Origin: Bacteroidaceae bacterium
GTDB taxonomy: Bacteria; Bacteroidota; Bacteroidia; Bacteroidales; Bacteroidaceae
Length of the DNA: 64,000 nucleotides
Assembly: GCA_017444485.1 (NCBI GenBank)
Contig: JAFSWM010000103.1
Coordinates: 4,845-68,844, forward strand
Direction: 5' to 3'
The translations under genes and the position numbers were made by a program. Positions 3 through 21,402 of this stretch are shown here, piece by piece (position 1 is the stretch's first letter; every line of letters starts with the position of its first letter). The notes beneath the pieces were generated by a model. It worked only from the letters and a program-made list of their open reading frames with translations. It was not told where the DNA came from and did not search any database.

Positions 3-1592
3 TCACCCTTGGTCGAGGGCGTGGCGGGGATAGTCGAGGGTGTAGTGCAGTCCGCGGCTCTCGTGGCGTTCGAGGGCCTGGCGAGTGATGAGATAGCCCA
101 CGTTGATCATGTTGCGCAGTTCGCAGATGTCGCGTGTGGCCTTGACGCGCTTGAAAAGTTCCTCGGTCTCCTCGTAGAGGAGGTCCAAGCGCGTCCAAGC
201 ACGGTGCAGCCTCAGGTTGCTGCGCACGATGCCCACATAGGCCGACATGATTTGTCCCACCTCCTTGACATCCTGCGCCACCAGCACCTTCTCCTCGTTG
301 GTCATGGTGCCCTCGTCGTTCCACTCGGGCACCGCGTCGTTGAAGCCGTATTCGCCGATATGGGCCACGCTGTGCGCTGCGGCGCGGTCGGCATAGACCA
401 CGGCTTCAATCAGCGAGTTCGACGCCAGGCGGTTACCGCCGTGCAAGCCCGTGCAACTACATTCGCCGAGGGCGTAGAGACGACGTATGCTGCTCAAGCC
501 GTCGAGGTCCACCTTGATGCCGCCACAGAAATAGTGCTGACAAGGCACCACGGGGATGTAGTCGCGCGTGATGTCAATGCCTATGCTGAGACATTTCTTG
601 TAGATATTGGGGAAGTGGTGGCGTGTCTCTTCGGCATCCTTGTGCGTGACGTCGAGGCATACGTGATCCAATCCGTGTATCTTCATCTCGCGGTCGATGG
701 CACGCGCCACGATGTCGCGCGGGGCGAGCGAGAGGCGCTTGTCGTACTTGTGCATAAACTCCCCGCCGCTGGGCAGTCTGAGCACACCGCCGTAGCCACG
801 CATGGCCTCGGTGATGAGGTAGGCAGGGTGCTTCTCGGCGGGGTTGTAGAGCGCAGTGGGGTGGAACTGCACAAATTCCATATCCTGCACGGTGGCCTTG
901 GCACGATAGGCCATCGCTATGCCATCGCCAGTGGCAATCTCGGGATTCGTCGTGCTGCTATACACCGCTCCCACACCGCCCGTAGCCAGAACGGTGACGC
1001 GAGAGAGGATGGTGTCCACCTTGCCCGTGTCGGGGTCGAGGACGTACGCGCCGAAACACTCAATGTCGGGCGTGCGGCGAGTCACCTCCACTCCGAGATG
1101 GTGCTGTGTGATGATTTCCACGGCGAAGTGGCGTTCCAACACGGTGATTTTCGGCTCACGGCGCACGGCAGCCATCAGGCCGCGCTGTATCTCAAAACCC
1201 GTGTCGTCCGCATGGTGGAGGATACGAAACTCGCTGTGGCCGCCCTCGCGGTGGAGGTCGAACGAGCCATCCTCGCGTTTGTCGAAATTCACTCCCCAGG
1301 CCACCAACCTGCGGATGCCCTCAGGGGCCTGCTCCACCACCTGGCGCACGGCCTGCGGGTCGCTGATATAGTCGCCCGCCACGATCGTGTCGCGGATGTG
1401 TTTCTCAAAATCGTCCACCTCAAGGTTGGTGACGCTGGCAATGCCTCCCTGCGCCTTGGCGGTGTTAGCCTCGTCGAGAGAAGTCTTGCACACCAGGGCC
1501 ACACGCCCCTTGCCCGACGCGGCAGCCTGCAACGCGTAACTCATGCCGGCCACGCCGCCGCCGATGACGAGGAAATCAAATTTGCGTTTCAT
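3..1592 (-). CDS. nadB: L-aspartate oxidase
   Basis: 529-aa ORF. ATG at 1592 and TGA at 3-5. N-terminal FAD-binding motif DFLVIGGGVAGMSYAL. Fumarate reductase/succinate dehydrogenase flavoprotein-like core (QFHPTAL, GGNRLASNSL). Length typical of NadB. Confidence 0.9.
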   Translation of the reverse strand: MKRKFDFLVIGGGVAGMSYALQAAASGKGRVALVCKTSLDEANTAKAQGGIASVTNLEVDDFEKHIRDTIVAGDYISDPQAVRQVVEQAPEGIRRLVAWGVNFDKREDGSFDLHREGGHSEFRILHHADDTGFEIQRGLMAAVRREPKITVLERHFAVEIITQHHLGVEVTRRTPDIECFGAYVLDPDTGKVDTILSRVTVLATGGVGAVYSSTTNPEIATGDGIAMAYRAKATVQDMEFVQFHPTALYNPAEKHPAYLITEAMRGYGGVLRLPSGGEFMHKYDKRLSLAPRDIVARAIDREMKIHGLDHVCLDVTHKDAEETRHHFPNIYKKCLSIGIDITRDYIPVVPCQHYFCGGIKVDLDGLSSIRRLYALGECSCTGLHGGNRLASNSLIEAVVYADRAAAHSVAHIGEYGFNDAVPEWNDEGTMTNEEKVLVAQDVKEVGQIMSAYVGIVRSNLRLHRAWTRLDLLYEETEELFKRVKATRDICELRNMINVGYLITRQALERHESRGLHYTLDYPRHALDQG

Positions 1593-1641
1593 TGTTGATT
1601 ATAAGATTATGCCCAGCACAATACGGATGCCAGGAAGAAAT

Positions 1642-3039
1642 TTATTGTTTCTGCGCCGCCGCCCCACGGTCGGCCTCAATAAGGGCGAGCAGGCGGGGGA
1701 TGGCCTCATCGGTAGGGATGTTCATCTCCACGCACTCCTTGCCACGATAGAGGCTCACCTTGCCGCGCGCCGCGCCGACGTAGCCATAGTCGGCATCGGC
1801 CATCTCGCCCGGCCCGTTCACGATGCAGCCCATCACGGCAATCTTCAGTCCTACCAGGTGCTGGGTGGCGGCCTTCACGCGGGCGATGGTGGCGGGTAGG
1901 TCATAGAGCGTGCGCCCACACCCCGGGCAACTGATATACTCTGTGCGTGTGAACCGCACACGGGCAGCCTGCAAGATGCGATCCGCCAGGTCAGTCAGTC
2001 GGTCGGTTTCCCACCCCTCGGCCTCTATTTTGAGGTCGGTGGCACGCTTGTCGAGGAGTGCCGGAGCGGCGGCCATCGCTGCTTTGAGTTGCAGTGTTGC
2101 CCAGTCGGGGGCTACTAAGCGGAGCGTCAGCACACCGGCAGCAATCGTCGCCGCGGCGGCCAGGGCCGCGCACTCGTCGCTAAGGGCCACCAGACTCTCC
2201 GCCACAGGGATTTCCGCCTCGGGGGGCTCGCTGAGGCTGACGCGGATCGTGTCGCCGATGCCCTCCATAAGCAACGTGCCGATGCCCACAGCACTCTTGA
2301 TACGCCCGTCCTCACCCTCGCCGGCCTCTGTCACACCGAGGTGTAAGGGGAAGGTCATGCCCTCTGCCGCCATGGTCTGCACCAACAGGCGTACACTCTG
2401 CACCATCACCACGGTGTTGCTGGCTTTGATAGACACCACGATATCCGTGAACTTTTCGCGCACGGCCACGCGCAAGAACTCCATGCAACTCTCCACAATG
2501 CCGGCAGGCGTGTCGCCGTAGCGCGACATGATGCGGTCGGAAAGCGAGCCGTGGTTCACCCCGATGCGCAGGGCGGTGCCATGGCTGCGACAAATGGCGA
2601 GCAAGCGACAGAAACGCTCCTCAAGACGTTGGAGTTCTGCGGCATACTCCTCATCGGTATAGTCGATGTGCTTGAATTTGCGGGCAGGGTCCACATAGTT
2701 TCCAGGGTTGATACGCACCTTCTCGCAGACCTGTGCCGCGGCGTCGGCCACAGCAGCATTGAAATGCACGTCGGCCACAAGCGGCACGTCGCAACCCTTC
2801 TGCCGCAAGGCGGCATGAATGGCGGCAAGGCTCTCCACCTCGCGCGTGCCTTGCGTGGTGAGGCGTATGAGGTCTGCACCCGCAGCGGCACAGCGCAGAC
2901 ACTGCTCCACCGAACCCGCCACATCGTTGGTGTCGGTGGTGGTCATGGTCTGCACCCTTACAGGATTTTCGGCGCCGAGGCGAAGCGTACCGATGCGCAC
3001 CTCGTGCGAACGACGGCGAGTGACAATTCCGGCAGTCAT
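1642..3039 (-). CDS. ispG: 4-hydroxy-3-methylbut-2-enyl diphosphate synthase (GcpE)
   Basis: 465-aa ORF. N-terminal TIM-barrel region RSHEVRIGTLRLGAENPVRVQTMTTTDT. C-terminal 4Fe-4S cysteine motifs SCPGCGRT and GCIVNGPGE. Confidence 0.9.
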   Translation of the reverse strand: MTAGIVTRRRSHEVRIGTLRLGAENPVRVQTMTTTDTNDVAGSVEQCLRCAAAGADLIRLTTQGTREVESLAAIHAALRQKGCDVPLVADVHFNAAVADAAAQVCEKVRINPGNYVDPARKFKHIDYTDEEYAAELQRLEERFCRLLAICRSHGTALRIGVNHGSLSDRIMSRYGDTPAGIVESCMEFLRVAVREKFTDIVVSIKASNTVVMVQSVRLLVQTMAAEGMTFPLHLGVTEAGEGEDGRIKSAVGIGTLLMEGIGDTIRVSLSEPPEAEIPVAESLVALSDECAALAAAATIAAGVLTLRLVAPDWATLQLKAAMAAAPALLDKRATDLKIEAEGWETDRLTDLADRILQAARVRFTRTEYISCPGCGRTLYDLPATIARVKAATQHLVGLKIAVMGCIVNGPGEMADADYGYVGAARGKVSLYRGKECVEMNIPTDEAIPRLLALIEADRGAAAQKQ

Positions 3040-3042
3040 GGC

Positions 3043-3552
3043 TCAATTGGTTTTATAGGCATATTTCACGGCAGCGAGTTCGGCATTGGCCTTGACGATC
3101 TTGTCCTTCAGACTGAGTTTCTGCGTCTTCAACCTTGCGGCAACGTCGGTGTCGGCCAACGCGATGATTTGCGCAGCGAGCAACGCAGCATTTTGTGCAG
3201 CATTCACGCCCACCGTAGCCACGGGGATACCTGGCGGCATCGGCACGATAGAGAGGAGCGCGTCAAGGCCGTCGAGCATCCCTTTGATAGGCACGCCGAT
3301 GACGGGCAGGGTGGTCTGCGCGGCGATTACACCTGGCAAAGCCGCCGACATGCCCGCGGCGGCAATGATGACACGCAAGCCACGGCTGGCGGCATCGCGG
3401 GCGAAGGCCTCGACCTCGGCAGGCGTGCGGTGGGCGGACAAGGCATTCATTTCGAAGGGGATTTGCAACTCGTCGAGTTGGCGTGCCGCCTTCTCCATCA
3501 CGGGAAGGTCGGACGTGCTGCCCATAATGATACTGACAAGAGGGGGAGTCAT
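3043..3552 (-). CDS. purE: 5-(carboxyamino)imidazole ribonucleotide mutase
   Basis: Motifs SIIMGSTSDLPVM, SAHRTP and AAGMSAALPGV. Start moved to the ATG at 3552 (MTPPLVSIIMG); the 16 codons upstream in the track ORF look like read-through. Confidence 0.9.
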   Translation of the reverse strand: MTPPLVSIIMGSTSDLPVMEKAARQLDELQIPFEMNALSAHRTPAEVEAFARDAASRGLRVIIAAAGMSAALPGVIAAQTTLPVIGVPIKGMLDGLDALLSIVPMPPGIPVATVGVNAAQNAALLAAQIIALADTDVAARLKTQKLSLKDKIVKANAELAAVKYAYKTN

Positions 3553-4288: not shown

Positions 4289-5776
4289 TCATTTTCTGAG
4301 CCTGCCAGTGGGAAGCCCCAACTGGCCGCGATACTTGGCCACGGTGCGGCGAGCAATGGCAAAGCCACGTTCGTTGAGTAACTGGGTGAGCATCTCGTCG
4401 CTATAAGGGTTGCGTTTGTCCTCGTGGTCGATGATGTCACGCAAGGCCAGTTTCACCGTGCGCGATGACACACTCTCGCCATCGCCCGTGGACATCTCGT
4501 TGGAAAAGAAGAACTTGAGGGGGTACGTCCCATAGTCTGTGCTCACGTACTTGCTGGCGGCGACCCTCGACACGGTGCTTATATCAACGCCGGCCTCCGC
4601 TGCCACGTCTTTGAGGGCCATAGGCCTAAGGAGCGTCTCATCGTCAGCACCGAGAAAGAACTCGCTCTGCCGGCGGGCAATGACTCTCATCACCGTGCGG
4701 AGCGTCTGGTTGCGGCGATTGAGGAGGTTGAGAAAACTCTGAGCAGCCTCCACCTTCTGGCGGGCATAAACGTAAGCGTCGTTCTGCTGGCGGTTTAACT
4801 GACGCGTGCGCCCGCTATAGTTTCGCACCGTTTCGCGAAAGGCAGGGCTGACACGCAACTCAGGCAGTCCGTCGTCGTTGAGCGCAATATGGATTTCGCC
4901 GTCGTCGTCCACGGAGAGATAAAAGTCGGGCGTCACAGTGGGAGCCGCTCCAGCCATGTCCTCACCGAAAGCACTGCCCGGAGCAGGGTTGAGACGGGTG
5001 AGCAGCCCTATCACCCCCTTGAAATCTTCGTCGCTGAGCCTCAGGCGGCGTTGTAGCACGTCCCAATGCTTCGACACAAAGTCCTTGAAATAGCGGCTAA
5101 TGGCGATCAGCGCTGCGGCCTTGTATGGGGACTTCAACTCGGGGGCTTCCAACTGCAACAGGAGACACTCCTGCAAAGAGCGCGCCCCGATGCCACGCGG
5201 CTCAAACGACTGAAGGATTTTCAAGAGTCGCTCCAATTCGGCCTCATCGGTGTCGGTGTCTTGATAAACAGCGAGTTCGTCGGCTATGCGCGCAAGAGAT
5301 TTGCGCAAGAGGCCATCGCTGTCGAGCGAGCCGATGAGATAGTCCATCACAGTTTGCTCGTGGGCAGAAAGAGCGTGTTCGCCCACCTGCTCCTTCAGTT
5401 CCTCATAAAAGGAGCGACCATAGGTGAGCGGTGTTTCGCGCTGCTGGAATTCAGCATCTTTGCGCTCACGAAGATAAGCGGGGACATCGTCCTCGGTGAG
5501 GTAGTCGCTCAATTCGTCGTCGTCAGCCATTCCATGATCAGAATCAGCGCCAAACATTTCATCGTCGGCATCGCCATCCCCTTCGTCGGAAATATCGTTG
5601 CTGTCAAAGTCATCATCGGCCTTCACCTCCAAGGCCGCATTGTCGAGCATCTCGTTCTCCACCCGCTCACGCAAATCCACAAGGGGCAGTTCTATCATCC
5701 GCGCCAACGCCACCTGAAGGGCCTGCGCCGTCTGCACCTGCCGCTCCTCCTGTGTCTGTGTCAGCACCTGTGGCAT
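4289..5776 (-). CDS. rpoN: RNA polymerase sigma-54 factor
   Basis: 495 aa. Gln-rich region I (QTQEERQVQTAQALQ), acidic region II (DDDFDSNDISDEGDGDADDE) and a C-terminal RpoN box ARRTVAKYRGQLGLP. Confidence 0.92.
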   Translation of the reverse strand: MPQVLTQTQEERQVQTAQALQVALARMIELPLVDLRERVENEMLDNAALEVKADDDFDSNDISDEGDGDADDEMFGADSDHGMADDDELSDYLTEDDVPAYLRERKDAEFQQRETPLTYGRSFYEELKEQVGEHALSAHEQTVMDYLIGSLDSDGLLRKSLARIADELAVYQDTDTDEAELERLLKILQSFEPRGIGARSLQECLLLQLEAPELKSPYKAAALIAISRYFKDFVSKHWDVLQRRLRLSDEDFKGVIGLLTRLNPAPGSAFGEDMAGAAPTVTPDFYLSVDDDGEIHIALNDDGLPELRVSPAFRETVRNYSGRTRQLNRQQNDAYVYARQKVEAAQSFLNLLNRRNQTLRTVMRVIARRQSEFFLGADDETLLRPMALKDVAAEAGVDISTVSRVAASKYVSTDYGTYPLKFFFSNEMSTGDGESVSSRTVKLALRDIIDHEDKRNPYSDEMLTQLLNERGFAIARRTVAKYRGQLGLPTGRLRK

Positions 5777-10244: not shown

Positions 10245-10634
10245 TTAGAAGGGCAGGTCGTCTTCTTCGTTTGCCGCAGGAGCAGCAGGTGAAGGAATGG
10301 CGGAGGCATCCGGAGCGGGAGTCTGGGCAGCGGCTGCAGCGGGGGCAGGAGTTACACCGACCTGCACACGATCAACCTTCCAAGCGCTGATGTCGTTAAA
10401 CCAGCGGCCTTGCCACTCGCGAGCATCAATGTCGAAGGATACGGTGAGTTCCTCGCCCACTTGTATGTTCATGTTCTTGATTTTGTCTTCGCCAAACACA
10501 CGGAAGCAGCAACGACGGGGGTACTGCTCGTGGGTTTCAAGTACGTACTCCTGAGACATCCAGTCGTTACCGGTGCGTTGGGACTTGCCCTTTCTCGGCT
10601 CGAGAACGGCAATGATTTTTCCTGTGATTTCCAT
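10245..10634 (-). CDS. DUF3127-family small OB-like protein with an SSB-like C-terminal tail
   Basis: 129 aa. MEITGKIIAVLEPRKGKSQRTGNDWMSQEYVLET... matches my memory of the Bacteroidota DUF3127 family. A Pro/Ala-rich linker ends in EEDDLPF. Confidence 0.7.
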   Translation of the reverse strand: MEITGKIIAVLEPRKGKSQRTGNDWMSQEYVLETHEQYPRRCCFRVFGEDKIKNMNIQVGEELTVSFDIDAREWQGRWFNDISAWKVDRVQVGVTPAPAAAAAQTPAPDASAIPSPAAPAANEEDDLPF

Positions 10635-10721: not shown

Positions 10722-10994
10722 TTATTCCTCGATGAGCCCCTCCTTGAGCAATTGCTCCAACAGGGCGGCAGCATCGCGCTCTGCCACATCGCGCTCCACT
10801 TCATATTCCTCCACCAATGCATCGGCGGCGTCGGAAGCGGTGAAAGGCGCGTCGGCTGGCATCCGCTCCCAAATGAAAGCGGCTGTCTCGTTGAGGTTAA
10901 TCATCTTGCTGAAATCCAAGTTCTGTATGCCCTGGGCGATGATGAGTTTCTCGCCGCATACGTCGCGTAGTTCAAAACCAGGTTTCTTTTTCAT
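10722..10994 (-). CDS. PqqD-family protein (RiPP recognition element-like)
   Basis: 90 aa from the ATG at 10994. Typical PqqD pattern LNETAAFIWERM...ALVEEYEVERDVAERDAAALLEQLLKEGLIEE. Its start overlaps the stop of the upstream peptidase gene by 4 nt. Confidence 0.8.
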   Translation of the reverse strand: MKKKPGFELRDVCGEKLIIAQGIQNLDFSKMINLNETAAFIWERMPADAPFTASDAADALVEEYEVERDVAERDAAALLEQLLKEGLIEE

Positions 10995-11500
10995 AATGTA
11001 GGAGGTATCTTGTCGGTTGAAATATCTCTTATCTTCACGGGAAACAGACGCAACCACACCCTGCGATGGAGGGCGAGCAGATAACGCCTGACGGGTGCGA
11101 GCCACATCCACAGTCTGGAATAGGTGCGCCATTTCAGCCCAGTGACGAGGTCGGCCTTACGGCGACCTTTTCGGTAGAACCCCACTGCTGTGGCCACCAC
11201 GTCGCTCACCCTGCACGTCTCAATGCCCTTGGAGTTGCCATCGCCTTTCAGTACCAAGTCGTCCTCGTGACGGATGATGACACGGTGCAAGACATAATGC
11301 TTGGGGCTGACCTCGGCAAGCACCACGTCGCCACGCTGTATCTCACCGGGTAGCACCAGAGCCACACAGTCGCGCTCGTGCTCCAGGAAGGGGCGCATAC
11401 TATTCCCACGCACTCGAAAGGTGACAAATGGCTGTCCCTCTTCAAGGAAGGCACGGACCTGAGGCACAAACTTGTCGTTGGGCAGACTGACTACTTTCAT
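10991..11500 (-). CDS. S24/S26-family Ser/Lys peptidase (LexA / signal-peptidase fold)
   Basis: 169 aa. VRGNSMRPFL (GxSM nucleophile motif) and VLKGDGN (candidate general-base Lys region). The basic amphipathic C-terminus is not found in LexA. There is a 4-nt overlap with the kinase gene stop. Confidence 0.7.
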   Translation of the reverse strand: MKVVSLPNDKFVPQVRAFLEEGQPFVTFRVRGNSMRPFLEHERDCVALVLPGEIQRGDVVLAEVSPKHYVLHRVIIRHEDDLVLKGDGNSKGIETCRVSDVVATAVGFYRKGRRKADLVTGLKWRTYSRLWMWLAPVRRYLLALHRRVWLRLFPVKIRDISTDKIPPTL

Positions 11501-12399
11501 ACCGGGCGGCTGATGGTGTCGTGGGAGAGACGAACGGCAGCCTCATTGGGCAGATTGCGCAAGTGATAGACTGGTACACTTCCCACCATAGCGGTGCAGG
11601 TGTCGCAAATGCGAGAATAAGTAGGCTTGTCCCACATCATGGAACTGCACGAAGAGAGCACACTGGCAAAGGCCGTAATCACCGGCTCGCGGGATATGAG
11701 GTTCTCCTTCCATTGCTCCAAGCGTACGAACGCACCGACCGGAGCGCTCTCGTTGTGGTAGCAAGGCGTTTTCCCGCTCCAGGGCGTGCCGTAAACGGTG
11801 ACGCTACCATCATCGGCCACACGCACAGCAGGGTTGTCATCGTTGAGCAAGCGACTGCCGCGCAGGTGGCGTATCCACAATTGTGTGTGGGTGCTCTTTC
11901 CCGTACCGCTCTTCCCAAGAAAGAGGTAGGCTTTCTCATCGCGCGTCACGACGCTGGCGTGCATCAGCACCACGCGGTGGTAGGCGGCGCAGTAGGCGTA
12001 GCATATCATCAGCACATTGTTGAGTCCGAAGGGGCGATTCTTCATGTTCTCGGTCAGCGTGGCCTCCACCGAAGAAAAATCGCTGTTGGCACGCACCGCC
12101 GCCGCTATCTCGCCATCCACGCTGCGCAGTTGGAACTTATAACCTCCATCTGCCAAGCGATACACACCATGCACCGTTCCGCCAGTATCGAACTGCCCCA
12201 TTTCTTCTCCCTCTGGGTTATCGTCAACAAGCCCTGGTGCCACGCGGACGCGCATATCCGAATGCCCAGCATAGTCGGGCAGGTAGAAATTCTTGTACGA
12301 GGGAATGAGGCGGCGCGGGTTGTCCGCATCGTTATAGTCAAGCGTGAAGACGACACCCGCCACGCGAAACGACATTACCTTTGAAGATTGCTGCTCCAT
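11497..12399 (-). CDS. HPr kinase/phosphorylase-like P-loop protein (HprK-related kinase)
   Basis: 300 aa. Walker A motif LGKSGTGKSTHT sits in a C-terminal domain laid out like the HprK catalytic domain (MHASVV...LFLGKSGTGKST...LLNDD). I could not place the N-terminal ~140 aa in any family. Confidence 0.6.
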   Translation of the reverse strand: MEQQSSKVMSFRVAGVVFTLDYNDADNPRRLIPSYKNFYLPDYAGHSDMRVRVAPGLVDDNPEGEEMGQFDTGGTVHGVYRLADGGYKFQLRSVDGEIAAAVRANSDFSSVEATLTENMKNRPFGLNNVLMICYAYCAAYHRVVLMHASVVTRDEKAYLFLGKSGTGKSTHTQLWIRHLRGSRLLNDDNPAVRVADDGSVTVYGTPWSGKTPCYHNESAPVGAFVRLEQWKENLISREPVITAFASVLSSCSSMMWDKPTYSRICDTCTAMVGSVPVYHLRNLPNEAAVRLSHDTISRPV

Positions 12400-12411
12400 C
12401 TGTTTGCGAAA

Positions 12412-12840
12412 TTATTGCTGTGAGACGGCCCGAGGCGTATAGGACACGGCCCTGAAACGGAACGCATCGCCAGGCACCTCCTCTATCCGCAGCCCCTTAT
12501 TTTTTTGGAAACGACGCCTAAGCCGCAGGTATTGCTTCTCTACTTTGGAGCGACTTGTGTCAAAAAAGACGGCACACGTTTCGTTGGTCTTACCAGCGTT
12601 CACAAATAGATAGCGGCCCAGTTGGTCGCTATAAGCGTAGCGATTGAGCAAAAAGCCCTGGGAGCGTTCAAGTGGCACGGAATCTACCCGCTGTACGGCA
12701 GTCAGATAGACCGTACTGTCGGCAAAGTTTATGCCCGCCCCGAACATATACACCTCAGACAATCTCACACGCTGGGCACACGCTACAAAGGGCAAGGCGA
12801 GAAAGAACAGGAAAAATACGGGTTTTAACAATCGTTTCAT
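12412..12840 (-). CDS. Secreted basic hypothetical protein (first gene of the kinase/peptidase/PqqD operon)
   Basis: 142 aa. Signal peptide MKRLLKPVFFLFFLALPFVACAQ. Arg/Lys-rich mature part. 12-bp gap to the next gene. Confidence 0.6.
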   Translation of the reverse strand: MKRLLKPVFFLFFLALPFVACAQRVRLSEVYMFGAGINFADSTVYLTAVQRVDSVPLERSQGFLLNRYAYSDQLGRYLFVNAGKTNETCAVFFDTSRSKVEKQYLRLRRRFQKNKGLRIEEVPGDAFRFRAVSYTPRAVSQQ

Positions 12841-12864: not shown

Positions 12865-12872
12865 CAAAATTA
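12865..12872 (-). promoter_or_regulatory. -7 promoter box (TAATTTTG on the minus strand) for the 12840-10722 operon
   Basis: The reverse complement of CAAAATTA matches TAnnTTTG and ends about 25 nt upstream of the ATG at 12840. Confidence 0.45.
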
Positions 12873-19942: not shown

Positions 19943-21226
19943 TCAGAGATTAAATGCGGCCTTTATCTCTTCCACACGATCGAGTTTTTCCCACGTGAAG
20001 AGTTCCACGATCCTGGTAACGGCTTTGGCTCCCTCGCCAAAGGTTTTACTGACCTTCTGCGGCGTGCGCCCCATGTGGCCATAAGCAGCCGTCTCGGAAT
20101 AGATGGGCTGGCGCAAGCACAAGTCGCGCTCTATGGCATGCGGACGCAAATCAAAGTGCTTCTTCACCCAAGCGGCTATCTCCCCATCGGAAAGAGAGAC
20201 GTGACTGCGACCATAAGTGTTCACATAGACACTGATGGGTTCTGCCACACCGATAGCGTAGGACAATTGCACAAGCATCTCGTCGGCCACACCCGCAGCC
20301 ACCATGTTTTTGGCGATGTGACGGGCGGCATAGGCTGCGCTGCGGTCCACCTTACTGGGGTCTTTGCCACTGAAGGCACCGCCGCCATGAGCACCGCAAC
20401 CACCATAGGTGTCCACGATGATTTTGCGACCTGTAAGGCCTGTGTCGCCCGCCGGACCGCCGATGACAAACTTGCCCGTGGGATTAACATGGTAGTTGAT
20501 ATTACCACGCTCAAACAGTGCACGTACCTCAGGCGTGTGGACACGTTCGGCCATCACACGAGGGATGAGTACGTTTTTCACATCCTCGCGAATACGCTCC
20601 AGCATACGGCGGTCGGCCTCCTCTTGGCTGATGCCATCGGCGGGAATGAACTCGTCGTGCTGTGTGGAGATGACGATGGTGTCAATGCGCTGGGCATGGT
20701 GGTCATCATCGTATTCCACGGTGACTTGGCTCTTGCTGTCGGGGCGAAGATAGGTCATTTGCTTCCCCTCGCGCCGTATCTCAGCAAGGACCTCCATGAG
20801 GTCGTGAGCCAAGGCAAGGGGCAGGGGCATCAGTTGCTCAGTCTCGTTGTTGGCGTACCCGAACATCATGCCTTGGTCGCCCGCGCCCTGCTGCTCGGGG
20901 TCATTGCGCTCTACGCCTCGGTTGATATCGGGAGACTGTTCGTGGATGGCGGAAAGGACGCCGCAAGAGTCGGCACTGAAAAGGTAGTCGTCCTTGGTAT
21001 AACCGATGCGGCGGATTGTTTTGCGGGCCACAGCGGGAAGGTCCACATAGGCTTCGCTTTTCACTTCGCCAGCAATTATCACCTGCCCAGTGGTGACAAG
21101 CGTTTCGCACGCCACCTTGGACTGGGCGTCTTGGGCCAGGAATTCGTCTAATATGGCATCGCTAATTTGGTCGGCTACTTTGTCGGGGTGTCCTTCCGAC
21201 ACGGATTCTGAAGTAAAGAGATACAT
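19943..21226 (-). CDS. metK: S-adenosylmethionine synthetase
   Basis: Motifs [49 protein letters not shown]. Start set at the ATG at 21226 (MYLFTSESV); the track ORF extends 17 codons further into the leader terminator. Confidence 0.93.
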
Positions 21227-21245
21227 GACGCTTTTATATAATAAT

Positions 21246-21280
21246 GAAAAAGGAACGGCAGACGAAGAGTCGGCCATTCC
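21246..21280 (-). terminator. Intrinsic terminator/attenuator inside the metK leader
   Basis: The minus-strand RNA reads GGAAUGGCCG-ACUCUUCGUCU-GCCGUUCC followed by UUUUUC. The 8-bp stem includes one G-U pair. It lies only about 20 nt upstream of the metK ATG, so it cannot be a normal upstream-gene terminator that leaves room for a promoter. Confidence 0.6.
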
Positions 21281-21338
21281 TTTTGTACGGTGTGTCTAAA
21301 ACATTTGTGCAAGGCATGCGTACCTTCTTGTCAGCCAA

Positions 21339-21384
21339 GTTTTAGCATTTTTTACCGTGGTTGCAAGCAGCCAAATCTGTCCAC
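21339..21384 (-). promoter_or_regulatory. Candidate SAM-II/SAM-V-class riboswitch aptamer in the metK leader
   Basis: Minus-strand RNA: GUGGACAGAUUUGGCUGCUUGCAACCACGGUAAAAAAUGCUAAAAC. A GUGG/CCAC stem closes a loop containing AUUUGGC, and that loop can pair with the 3' GCUAAA tail to form an H-type pseudoknot. The UUGCA and A-rich/GCUAAA signatures resemble my memory of the SAM-II consensus. No covariance model was run. Confidence 0.4.
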
Positions 21385-21402
21385 TGTTGTATGTTTACGG
21401 TG

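Follow-up and report, generated by a model that had tools for sequence, protein, structure and literature searches.

Four genes on the minus strand of a Bacteroidaceae bacterium genome are the subject of this analysis. They lie in a 64,000-nucleotide stretch of DNA, hereafter the window (GenBank assembly GCA_017444485.1, contig JAFSWM010000103.1, positions 4,845 to 68,844 of the forward strand). In the order in which they are read, we call them A, B, C, and D; they encode an exported protein, a P-loop enzyme, a putative peptidase of the LexA/signal-peptidase clan, and a protein of the PqqD type, that is, a recognition element (RRE) for peptides that are made by ribosomes and modified after translation (RiPPs) (Table 1). 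An earlier note on this DNA, made from the letters alone, had described them as an orphan RiPP-like operon. The coordinates, the coupling of four genes on the same strand, the 12-nt spacing between A and B, the two stop/start ATGA overlaps (B/C at 11497-11500 and C/D at 10991-10994), and the promoter box that it listed are all present, as are the motifs it named in B (GKSGTGKST, residues 162-170) and in C (GNSM, residues 32-35; KGDG, residues 85-88).

For D we use the 90-residue version, because the consensus of its orthologs opens with MKxKxGF; the mechanical list of open reading frames (ORFs) extends it to 136 residues from an upstream ATG. The window contains 42 copies of the promoter consensus TAnnTTTG where 18.7 are expected, 0 of 100 shuffles gave as many, and the minus strand of 10722-12840 contains no further copy. 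Scans for sigma-70 promoters and terminators returned nothing above chance.

Table 1. Positions of the four genes, their promoter box, and the conserved motifs of B and C in the window
Feature	Position	Strand	Remarks
Gene A	12412-12840	minus	142 aa, exported
Gene B	11497-12399	minus	300 aa, P-loop
Gene C	10991-11500	minus	169 aa, S24/S26-like
Gene D	10722-10994	minus	90 aa, PqqD
Bacteroidetes-type -7 promoter box TAATTTTG	12865-12872	minus	25 nt upstream of A's ATG; read from the sequence
B, Walker A GKSGTGKST (162-170)	11890-11916	minus	S164, G165, G167, K168, S169, T170 in 82/82
B, H147-A148-S149	11953-11961	minus	H147 in 82/82; corresponds to the essential His of HprK-type kinases
B, N186-D187-D188-N189 (Asp-Asp pair)	11833-11844	minus	all four residues in 82/82
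C, nucleophile motif G32-N33-S34-M35	11396-11407	minus	G32, S34, M35 in 77/77
C, H72-R73	11282-11287	minus	both in 77/77; His at the LexA general-base Lys position
C, G86-D87-G88-N89 box	11234-11245	minus	77/77; resembles the GDNN box of endoplasmic reticulum/archaeal-type signal peptidases

The module is widespread and syntenic in Bacteroidales

Species-level genomes that encode B number at least 595 (with one genome scanned for each species, at least 600 stretches were obtained, of which 595 were confirmed). Homologs of B make up more than 7,900 clusters in both large protein libraries, and 625 of these clusters reach E<=1e-30. Of the loci compared, which are identified below by L numbers where they need to be told apart, 80 were kept from the species scan, and co-occurrence was assessed with family hidden Markov models (HMMs) in 98 sources. 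Labels of the 80 loci are nearly all Prevotella, Alloprevotella, Paraprevotella, Hoylesella, Hallella, Palleniella, Bacteroidaceae, or Bacteroidales; hundreds of species of gut, rumen, and oral Bacteroidales have the module. The HMMs found A-B-C-D together in 80 of the 98 sources and B-C-D in 92, and tblastn recovered A-B-C-D in order and on one strand in 71 of 87 loci, with the genes mostly packed and their stop and start codons overlapping. The idea that the four genes belong together is therefore borne out by their synteny over hundreds of species, an arrangement far beyond chance. The module is among the most widespread conserved modules in Bacteroidales and sits among housekeeping genes, and the label "orphan" is misleading. 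Further, B is fused to a complete C domain in 14 of the best 150 B representatives (50% identity), and these fusions argue strongly that the two proteins act as a single unit.

The flanks of the module vary with lineage: PNP_UDP_1 and PHO4 in Bacteroides acidifaciens, rpoD and rlmH in Alloprevotella, and aromatic amino-acid genes or mreCD-PBP2-rodA in the closest relatives of the window. In 44 loci (including L005, L019, L082, and L093), the gene directly upstream of A, in the same orientation, is a 287-aa primary-type sigma-70 gene (rpoD), and an HtrA/DegQ-like protease gene precedes the sigma-70 gene in 35; this adjacency may reflect inherited synteny or a functional link. Five loci (L017-L020; e.g., L019 6647-7963) carry a Peptidase_C11 clostripain-family lipoprotein gene (~430 aa, 150 bits) between A and B. 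Some contigs and proteins with typical Bacteroidales modules (L028, L077, L082, and P0515) are labeled Flexilinea, Paratractidigestivibacter, Lachnospiraceae, or Desulfovibrionaceae in the records of metagenome-assembled genomes (MAGs), which is probably binning contamination rather than horizontal transfer. An origin as a defense system or from phage was considered and rejected: A-D have no PADLOC match, and 2.9 million viral contigs held two weak relatives of B.

B is a PEPCK/HprK-like P-loop enzyme outside the curated kinase families

The earlier note took B for an HprK-like kinase. Measured against the curated models, B scores 12.9 bits with PF07475 (Hpr_kinase_C; cut-off 33.3), 30.3 bits with TIGR04352 (HprK_rel_A; cut-off 200, E 2e-7), and 19.4 bits with TIGR04249 (ScmC; cut-off 125, E 5e-4), the last two alignments covering just ~60-85 residues around the P-loop, and a weak match to phosphoenolpyruvate carboxykinase (PEPCK) is below its cut-off too. 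In the same test, the kinase of a Butyrivibrio lasso-peptide cluster passes Hpr_kinase_C with 41.4 bits; B aligns with it over 72 residues only. Because B falls below all curated cut-offs while the lasso kinase passes Hpr_kinase_C, we count it, on these profile scores, as a family distinct from curated HprK, HprK-rel-A, and ScmC. Precomputed Pfam annotation puts the B family in the new PF27840 ("ScmC"), with marks faint to unmarked. The window protein is 100% identical to a hypothetical protein from a Bacteroidaceae MAG, and the public names of the B orthologs that we looked up are nearly all "hypothetical protein."

An AlphaFold 2 (AF2) model of B built from 18 orthologs is confident (predicted local distance difference test score, pLDDT, 92; predicted template modeling score, pTM, 0.90) and has 132 matches in the PDB at E<=0.001, of which the top 50 are all PEPCKs. 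Because the best structural matches are whole ATP-dependent PEPCKs (E 5.8e-9, TM 0.50), the model suggests that B is a "mini-PEPCK" within the PEPCK/HprK superfamily. A search of PDB sequences with the B profile gave P-loop noise only. The His-Lys-Asp-Asp set of B (H147, K168, D187, and D188), kept in 82 of 82 sequences, is the set that mutagenesis showed to be essential in lasso-tailoring kinases (PMC9266682). Predicted fold and catalytic residues together thus place B in the PEPCK/HprK-like P-loop superfamily; this much of the HprK-like assignment stands, whereas membership in Hpr_kinase_C, HprK_rel_A, or ScmC does not.

C is a clan-SF peptidase with a probable Ser/His dyad

The assignment of C to the S24/S26 clan held, on the strength of Peptidase_S24 matches among its orthologs. 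C itself scores 20.2 bits with Peptidase_S24, under the cut-off of 23.3, and its orthologs 27.3 to 37.4 bits; 21 of 24 orthologs match Peptidase_S24 at E<=0.01, and 3 match Peptidase_S26. Its best NCBIfam match is sigpep_I_arch (TIGR02228; 27.3 bits, cut-off 51.85), and a search of PDB sequences with the C profile reached LexA at E 0.7.

The lysine of the KGDG region named in the earlier note is not conserved. Among 77 orthologs its position (K85) is Lys in 5, Arg in 35, Met in 18, and Gln in 13. The LexA alignment stops seven residues short of H72-R73, and its gap-free extension sets LexA K156-R157 opposite that pair. Because H72 is invariant at the position of the LexA catalytic Lys and K85 is poorly conserved, the alignment points to a dyad of Ser34 and His72, not Ser/Lys, with His72 as the predicted general base; the Ser of the S24 dyad is invariant in C, and a His occupies the place of the Lys. 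Further invariant residues are E94, W131, R138, and R139.

C also departs from S26B signal peptidases, scoring under the cut-off and having no hydrophobic N-terminus; we found no transmembrane helix or N-terminal membrane anchor in C, whose longest charge-free stretch is 9 aa. Sec11, an S26B enzyme, has the motifs SGSMEP, VHRV, and KGDNN. It is by these motifs, and not by a comparison of models, that we take the Ser/His/GDGN pattern of C to resemble S26B. Pfam and NCBIfam searches detected no DNA-binding or other effector domain in C. Its C-terminal helix is conserved and basic/aromatic (rich in Arg, Trp, and Tyr; KWRxYSxxWxxLxPxRRYLL), and is kept in the Butyrivibrio homolog described below.

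D is a stand-alone PqqD-family RRE, and A an exported protein with no solved relative

D, which had been called a textbook PqqD protein, matches PF05402 (PqqD) well above the cut-off (66.3 bits against 23.4, residues 29-88). The closest solved proteins, 9x90_B among them, are the RREs of lasso peptide biosynthesis known as B1 proteins: TfuB1 (6jx3_B, E 2.8e-6), two newer PDB entries named lasso PqqD chaperone, and TbiB1. D scores below the lasso B1 cut-offs (39 bits against 80 and 32.8 against 70; NF033536 and NF033530) and also under the HPr-rel-A-specific NCBIfam cut-offs. An ortholog is detectable by tblastn in 82 of 87 loci; Cys13 is nearly invariant, and position 37 is a conserved Ser/Thr. 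D is a bona fide stand-alone PqqD-family RRE.

A begins with a cleavable Sec-type signal peptide (~residues 1-22, ...VACA|Q, an A-x-A|Q site), and alignments of the family show a variable signal peptide followed by a conserved alpha/beta core of ~115 aa. It has no Pfam, NCBIfam, or PADLOC match, and its AF2 model (pLDDT 85) has no fold match in the PDB at E<=0.001, nor did A find a sequence match there. As neither structure nor sequence ties A to any PDB entry, its model, although confident, gives no pointer to function. Within the family, D41-S42, in a predicted loop, are the sole residues without variation, and the triplet D-[ST]-[AILVMT] (residues 41-43) occurs in 67 of 70 sequences. This triplet matches the general Bacteroidetes O-glycosylation sequon; D41-S42 could equally be a functional or phosphorylation site instead of a glycosylation sequon.

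Variant modules and a homolog on a Butyrivibrio plasmid

An ABC exporter of the peptide/lipid half-transporter type lies 5' or 3' of the module in L085, L089-L092, L107 (Phocaeicola), and L101 (Butyrivibrio). In L085 and L089-L092, B-C-D or a fused BC-D is followed by the half-transporter, and A is missing. Because the exporters of the three loci compared (L085, L089, and L091) are 40-54% identical to one another, they appear, by sequence, to be a dedicated family. Fusion-type lineages also have a tRNA-Leu(GAG) 3' of the exporter (L089 10509-10592 and L091 10608-10691), and tblastx between masked exporter-type loci detected this shared tRNA-Leu only. A second recurrent partner, NTP_transf_5, is found beside the module in L086, L094, and L107: Phocaeicola massiliensis (L107) has a contiguous D-NTP_transf_5-ABC exporter-B-C, and L086 has D-NTP_transf_5-B within a polysaccharide locus, without C. 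A nucleotidyltransferase accompanies the kinase in the pseudomycoidin lasso cluster (PMC9266682), and we liken it to NTP_transf_5 by description only.

Other arrangements depart further from the window type. In L094/L095, which adjoin a conjugative element, the order is AraC, a 38-aa ORF, a 32-aa ORF, a 444-aa RicinB-lectin protein, B, C, D, and a truncated NTP_transf_5. Of the two small ORFs (4985-5101 and 5525-5623), that of 38 aa has a GTG start, reads MNEIYDKPAIEIIEMEMEGILCNSGTGGGYNPDGGWGN, and stands behind a TATATTTG box; that of 32 aa ends in Ser. In L100, LpxB is fused to B in frame (1382-3532), and the genes after it are C, D, and an MFS transporter. The LpxB::B proteins, P0207 and P0389 (716 and 736 aa), come from two contigs, and could be real fusions or due to a lost stop codon between adjacent genes. 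A low-GC contig (L098) carries a B'-C' pair without PqqD.

The most telling variant lies on the Butyrivibrio fibrisolvens plasmid pNP243 (L101), which has a split ABC exporter, a B-like gene, an annotated 57-aa ORF, PqqD, and an "S24/S26 family peptidase." The B-like protein, PqqD, and the peptidase are homologous to the window proteins over their full length or catalytic core (B, 32% identity, E 5e-13; C, 31% over 143 aa, E 1e-12; D, 28% over the full length, E 2e-11). The 57-aa ORF between the B-like and PqqD genes (L101 7639-7812, WP_167562696.1, MKKAYVKPELKASMNGTLEGVYA-CPDYNTGSNKEQYCYDPCWNPCYNPCQPSYGRIW) has a leader-like N-terminus and a Cys/Pro-rich C-terminus, and is likely to encode the precursor of a RiPP not yet described. 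The pattern Y-x-K-P-x-[LI]...EG..C is common to it and the 38-aa ORF of L094/L095. A complete canonical lasso set, with its own 49-aa ORF, is located 12 kb from the module homolog on the same plasmid. A metagenome scan with the Butyrivibrio B-like protein returned three contigs only, 99% identical. The observation that the usual RiPP partners are missing is correct for the surroundings of the window module, although not for the sister modules, which carry an ABC exporter, NTP_transf_5, or the Butyrivibrio 57-aa ORF.

A proposed peptide-maturation complex

Domain identities, conservation of catalytic residues, synteny, fusions, and exporter linkage are direct observations, and with them in hand we tentatively propose, at a confidence a little short of even, that B-C-D is a cytoplasmic peptide-maturation complex guided by an RRE. 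We infer a peptide as its substrate: D would bind the leader-like segment of a ribosomal peptide that, in Bacteroidales, would be encoded away from the module. B would then spend ATP, most likely phosphorylating a hydroxyl of the bound peptide by analogy with PadeK, ThcoK, and PsmK, and C would cut off the leader, its Ser/His dyad standing in for the cysteine protease of the lasso B2 type. The product would be exported, in sister modules via the dedicated ABC transporter; in the window type, the exporter is absent and the exported protein A would be co-translated instead. Any role of A would probably be that of a periplasmic-side accessory, for example, a receptor, carrier, or self-protection factor. 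Lineages with the exporter lack A and those with A lack the exporter, an anticorrelation that fits a periplasmic accessory and also feeds the alternative, weighed below, that A is the substrate.

A more unusual reading makes the module a core, order-wide RRE machine of Bacteroidales outside classical secondary metabolism. It would make one conserved peptide, phosphorylated or processed and encoded elsewhere in the genome, for example, a signal or a cofactor-like molecule, or else it would process the terminus of a housekeeping or envelope protein, in both cases with A as its periplasmic partner. We give this reading about one chance in four. If true, it would define a new class of RRE-dependent pathway, marked by a clan-SF leader peptidase of the Ser/His type and a mini-PEPCK kinase coupled or fused to it.

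Several results weigh against a peptide-maturation complex. The kinase activity of B is read from fold and motif only, because B lies under all curated kinase-family thresholds. No exporter of the module-linked family was found in the 64-kb window or linked to the window type, and the housekeeping and envelope neighbors (rpoD, htrA, murF, mreCD-PBP2-rodA, mtgA, pyrG-yidC, and lpxB) give the module a core-genome look. There is no candidate precursor near the window operon or near ~80 related Bacteroidales modules. A remnant of a lasso cluster was rejected, the leader motif Y..P.L...G....T being found in 0 of 98 sources in six frames and the flanks being without a cyclase or B2. A hidden microORF was rejected as well: when 684 intergenic ORFs (15-90 aa, <=2.5 kb from ~80 modules) were clustered, no family was present in more than three loci. 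The relaxed motif Y-x-x-P-x-L, taken from the Butyrivibrio ORF, had 29 matches against 28-42 in shuffles, with 0 in the window. The Butyrivibrio small ORF is a single case, and the likeness of the L094 ORF to it is not significant (BLAST E 0.097).

These searches agree with the earlier statement that no precursor, cyclase, B2 protease, radical SAM enzyme, or exporter is near the window module. In several loci the pairs rpoD-A, A-B, B-C, C-D, and D-rlmH touch or run into each other, which leaves no space for a precursor. Only L094/L095 and L101 contain the strict motif Y-x-[KR]-P-x-[LIVM]...[ED]G, and the resemblance between the L094 and Butyrivibrio ORFs is a lead only, drawn from their sequences. 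A precursor gene in or next to the cluster, as expected of a RiPP cluster, therefore has a candidate in Butyrivibrio only, and possibly in L094. A 55-aa ORF in L029 (9603-9770, minus strand; MEKKYVKPEMMTVVLNSMQMLAES...), 2.3 kb from a canonical Prevotellaceae module and downstream of an OmpA-like gene, has a start resembling the Butyrivibrio leader, a likeness that may be due to chance.

Alternative explanations

The core-genome setting would also fit an envelope-related housekeeping system, whose target would be the terminus of a cellular protein or a glycan or lipid intermediate, with B a small-molecule or protein kinase and D an adaptor only. We consider this unlikely, and it has a number of observations in its favor: B in its entirety superimposes on PEPCK, which is a small-molecule kinase, and not on HprK alone; rpoD and htrA recur upstream in the 44 and 35 loci counted above; mtgA (in the window and L096), murF, mreCD-PBP2-rodA, pyrG-yidC, and PBP1A are found in the flanks; LpxB is fused in frame to B in two sequences; D-NTP_transf_5-B lies in a polysaccharide locus of L086 without C; and no precursor is encoded in cis. 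However, conserved flanks could be inherited synteny, and they differ in Bacteroides and in the lineage of the window. To our knowledge, all characterized PqqD-family proteins bind peptides. C is a peptidase with intact catalytic residues, the dedicated exporter is of the peptide/lipid half-transporter type, and the Butyrivibrio homolog has a precursor-like ORF and adjoins a lasso cluster, all of which speaks against such a system.

A second alternative, which we also think unlikely, keeps the peptide and drops the phosphate: B and C would form a leader peptidase that depends on ATP, with B as its ATPase subunit and D as a B1-like adaptor, and the product would be cleaved but unphosphorylated. 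The frequency of B-C fusions (14/150) and the B'-C' pair without PqqD in L098 are what such a peptidase would lead one to expect, and B is under the HprK-family cut-offs that a true lasso kinase exceeds. According to PMC9266682, the removal of the leader in lasso biosynthesis depends on ATP. Yet the invariant His-Lys-Asp-Asp set and the N-D-D-N motif fit a phosphotransferase site, not a mere nucleotide switch, and L086 has B, D, and NTP_transf_5 without the peptidase.

The earlier note suggested the 142-aa protein A as the kinase substrate. If so, D would hold pre-A, B would phosphorylate it (e.g., at Ser42), and C would trim it. A and B are translationally coupled (12 nt apart in the window, and overlapping by ATGA in many loci), 80 of 98 sources have A together with B-C-D, the sole invariant residues of A, D41-S42, are in a predicted loop, and exporter-linked lineages are without A and A-bearing lineages without an exporter; in L094, another protein, the 444-aa RicinB-lectin, fills the upstream slot of A. 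Nevertheless, A is a poor candidate, and we regard its being the substrate as improbable. It starts with a Sec signal of a generic kind, not conserved and ending in an A-x-A|Q site, rather than with a conserved leader that an RRE could recognize, and it is exported, whereas B, C, and D carry neither a signal nor a transmembrane segment. B-C-D occurs without it in several lineages: no A-like gene is found within 15 kb in at least six (L030/L048/L062, L084, L085, L089-L092, L094, and L100). A also has no conserved C-terminal Ser, the target of known related kinases, and D-[ST]-[AILVMT] is presumably explained equally well as an O-glycosylation sequon.

That D is instead the phospho-acceptor of an HprK/HPr-like regulatory pair, in a lineage regarded as lacking a classical phosphotransferase system, with C a regulated self- or target-cleaving protease, is very improbable, for although D is about the size of HPr and has a nearly invariant Cys13 and a conserved Ser/Thr37, and S24 peptidases are classically regulatory and self-cleaving, the fold signature of D is PqqD and not HPr, C lacks a DNA-binding or effector domain, and ABC exporters and NTP_transf_5 suggest a product and not a switch.

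Surroundings of the operon in the window

The rest of the window is ordinary chromosomal core, with rpoN, dsbD, mnmA, mtgA, a GH2 beta-galactosidase gene, hemD, metK, polA, uvrC, and mnmG. Directly downstream of D lies a gene for a DUF3127 protein (10245-10634, minus strand, 118 bits), which has an Ala/Pro-rich linker and an acidic tail, ...EEDDLPF, resembling the C-terminal tip of the single-stranded DNA-binding protein SSB. It may be co-transcribed with D, because no TAnnTTTG box lies between the two genes. The DUF3127-mtgA pair is also found 3' of the module in L096, a 75%-identical relative. A 287-aa ORF at 11521-12384 on the plus strand is antisense to nearly all of B; shadow ORFs of this kind are typical of GC-rich coding sequence, and we do not count it as a gene candidate. 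Elsewhere in the window, a SAM-II (long-loop) riboswitch (21332-21390, minus strand; 59.9 bits against a gathering score of 44) lies directly upstream of metK, the S-adenosylmethionine synthetase gene (19943-21277, minus strand).

Significance and comparison with known systems

Bacteroidales are the dominant order in the human gut and rumen and have a prominent place in the mouth, and at least 595 species-level genomes of the order contain the module. Should its product be a conserved modified peptide, the order would have a nearly universal metabolite or signal not seen before; should it act on a cellular protein, RRE-guided chemistry would extend beyond natural products. In either case, the pairing of a PEPCK-fold P-loop enzyme with a Ser/His protease similar to LexA and signal peptidases, often in one polypeptide, is a new one, and a clean target for biochemistry in genetically tractable Bacteroides. 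The earlier note had left room for a match to a characterized pathway; in the literature searched we found no paper characterizing the module, and a paper dedicated to RiPP mining in Bacteroidales makes no mention of it. A survey of the oral microbiome reported a mixed Prevotella/Segatella/Hoylesella "RRE-containing" antiSMASH family, without product, substrate, or mechanism (bioRxiv 10.1101/2025.09.04.674288). The genera match those of loci L071 and L075, and this family is probably the module locus.

Pairs of a PqqD protein and a kinase-like protein are likewise found in the HPr-rel-A system (TIGR04352 with PqqD_rel_X, TIGR04353) and in SynChlorMet (ScmC, TIGR04249, with ScmD), and the models of these systems are the best curated matches of B and weak matches of D. 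However, the scores are far under the cut-offs (30 against 200, 19 against 125, and 17 against 35), and the module has no radical SAM/SPASM partners and has an S24-like peptidase as partner.

The peptidase has its relatives in clan SF, which includes LexA and UmuD (S24), type I signal peptidases, Sec11 and SipW (S26B), and SodX, the maturation protease of nickel superoxide dismutase. C shares the G-x-S-M motif and the beta-barrel core of the clan, but is without the catalytic Lys, the membrane anchor, the LexA-type DNA-binding domain, and the Ala-Gly self-cleavage region, and adds a conserved basic/aromatic C-terminal helix. A C ortholog matches the SodX model weakly. C resembles SodX in being a soluble protein of the cytoplasm that would take off an N-terminal leader, and SodX is, by analogy, a precedent for a cytoplasmic S26-type leader peptidase.

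The closest functional parallel may lie with lasso systems that include a kinase (paeninodin PadeB1/B2/C/K; ThcoK and SyanK; pseudomycoidin PsmK/PsmN). Like the module, these have a stand-alone PqqD-type RRE, a P-loop enzyme of ~300 aa of the HprK/PEPCK superfamily with the His-Lys-Asp-Asp set, a leader-type protease, an optional nucleotidyltransferase (NTP_transf_5 in our case), and an optional ABC exporter, the last two being found, in our case, in sister modules. The differences are that the module has no Asn-synthetase-like cyclase, transglutaminase-like B2 protease, or Y-x-x-P-x-L...T precursor, that its protease is a Ser/His clan-SF enzyme, that D scores below the lasso_PqqD cut-offs and B fails Hpr_kinase_C, and that its distribution is that of the core genome. 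By analogy, then, the module would function most like the B1/B2/kinase set of a lasso pathway minus the cyclase.

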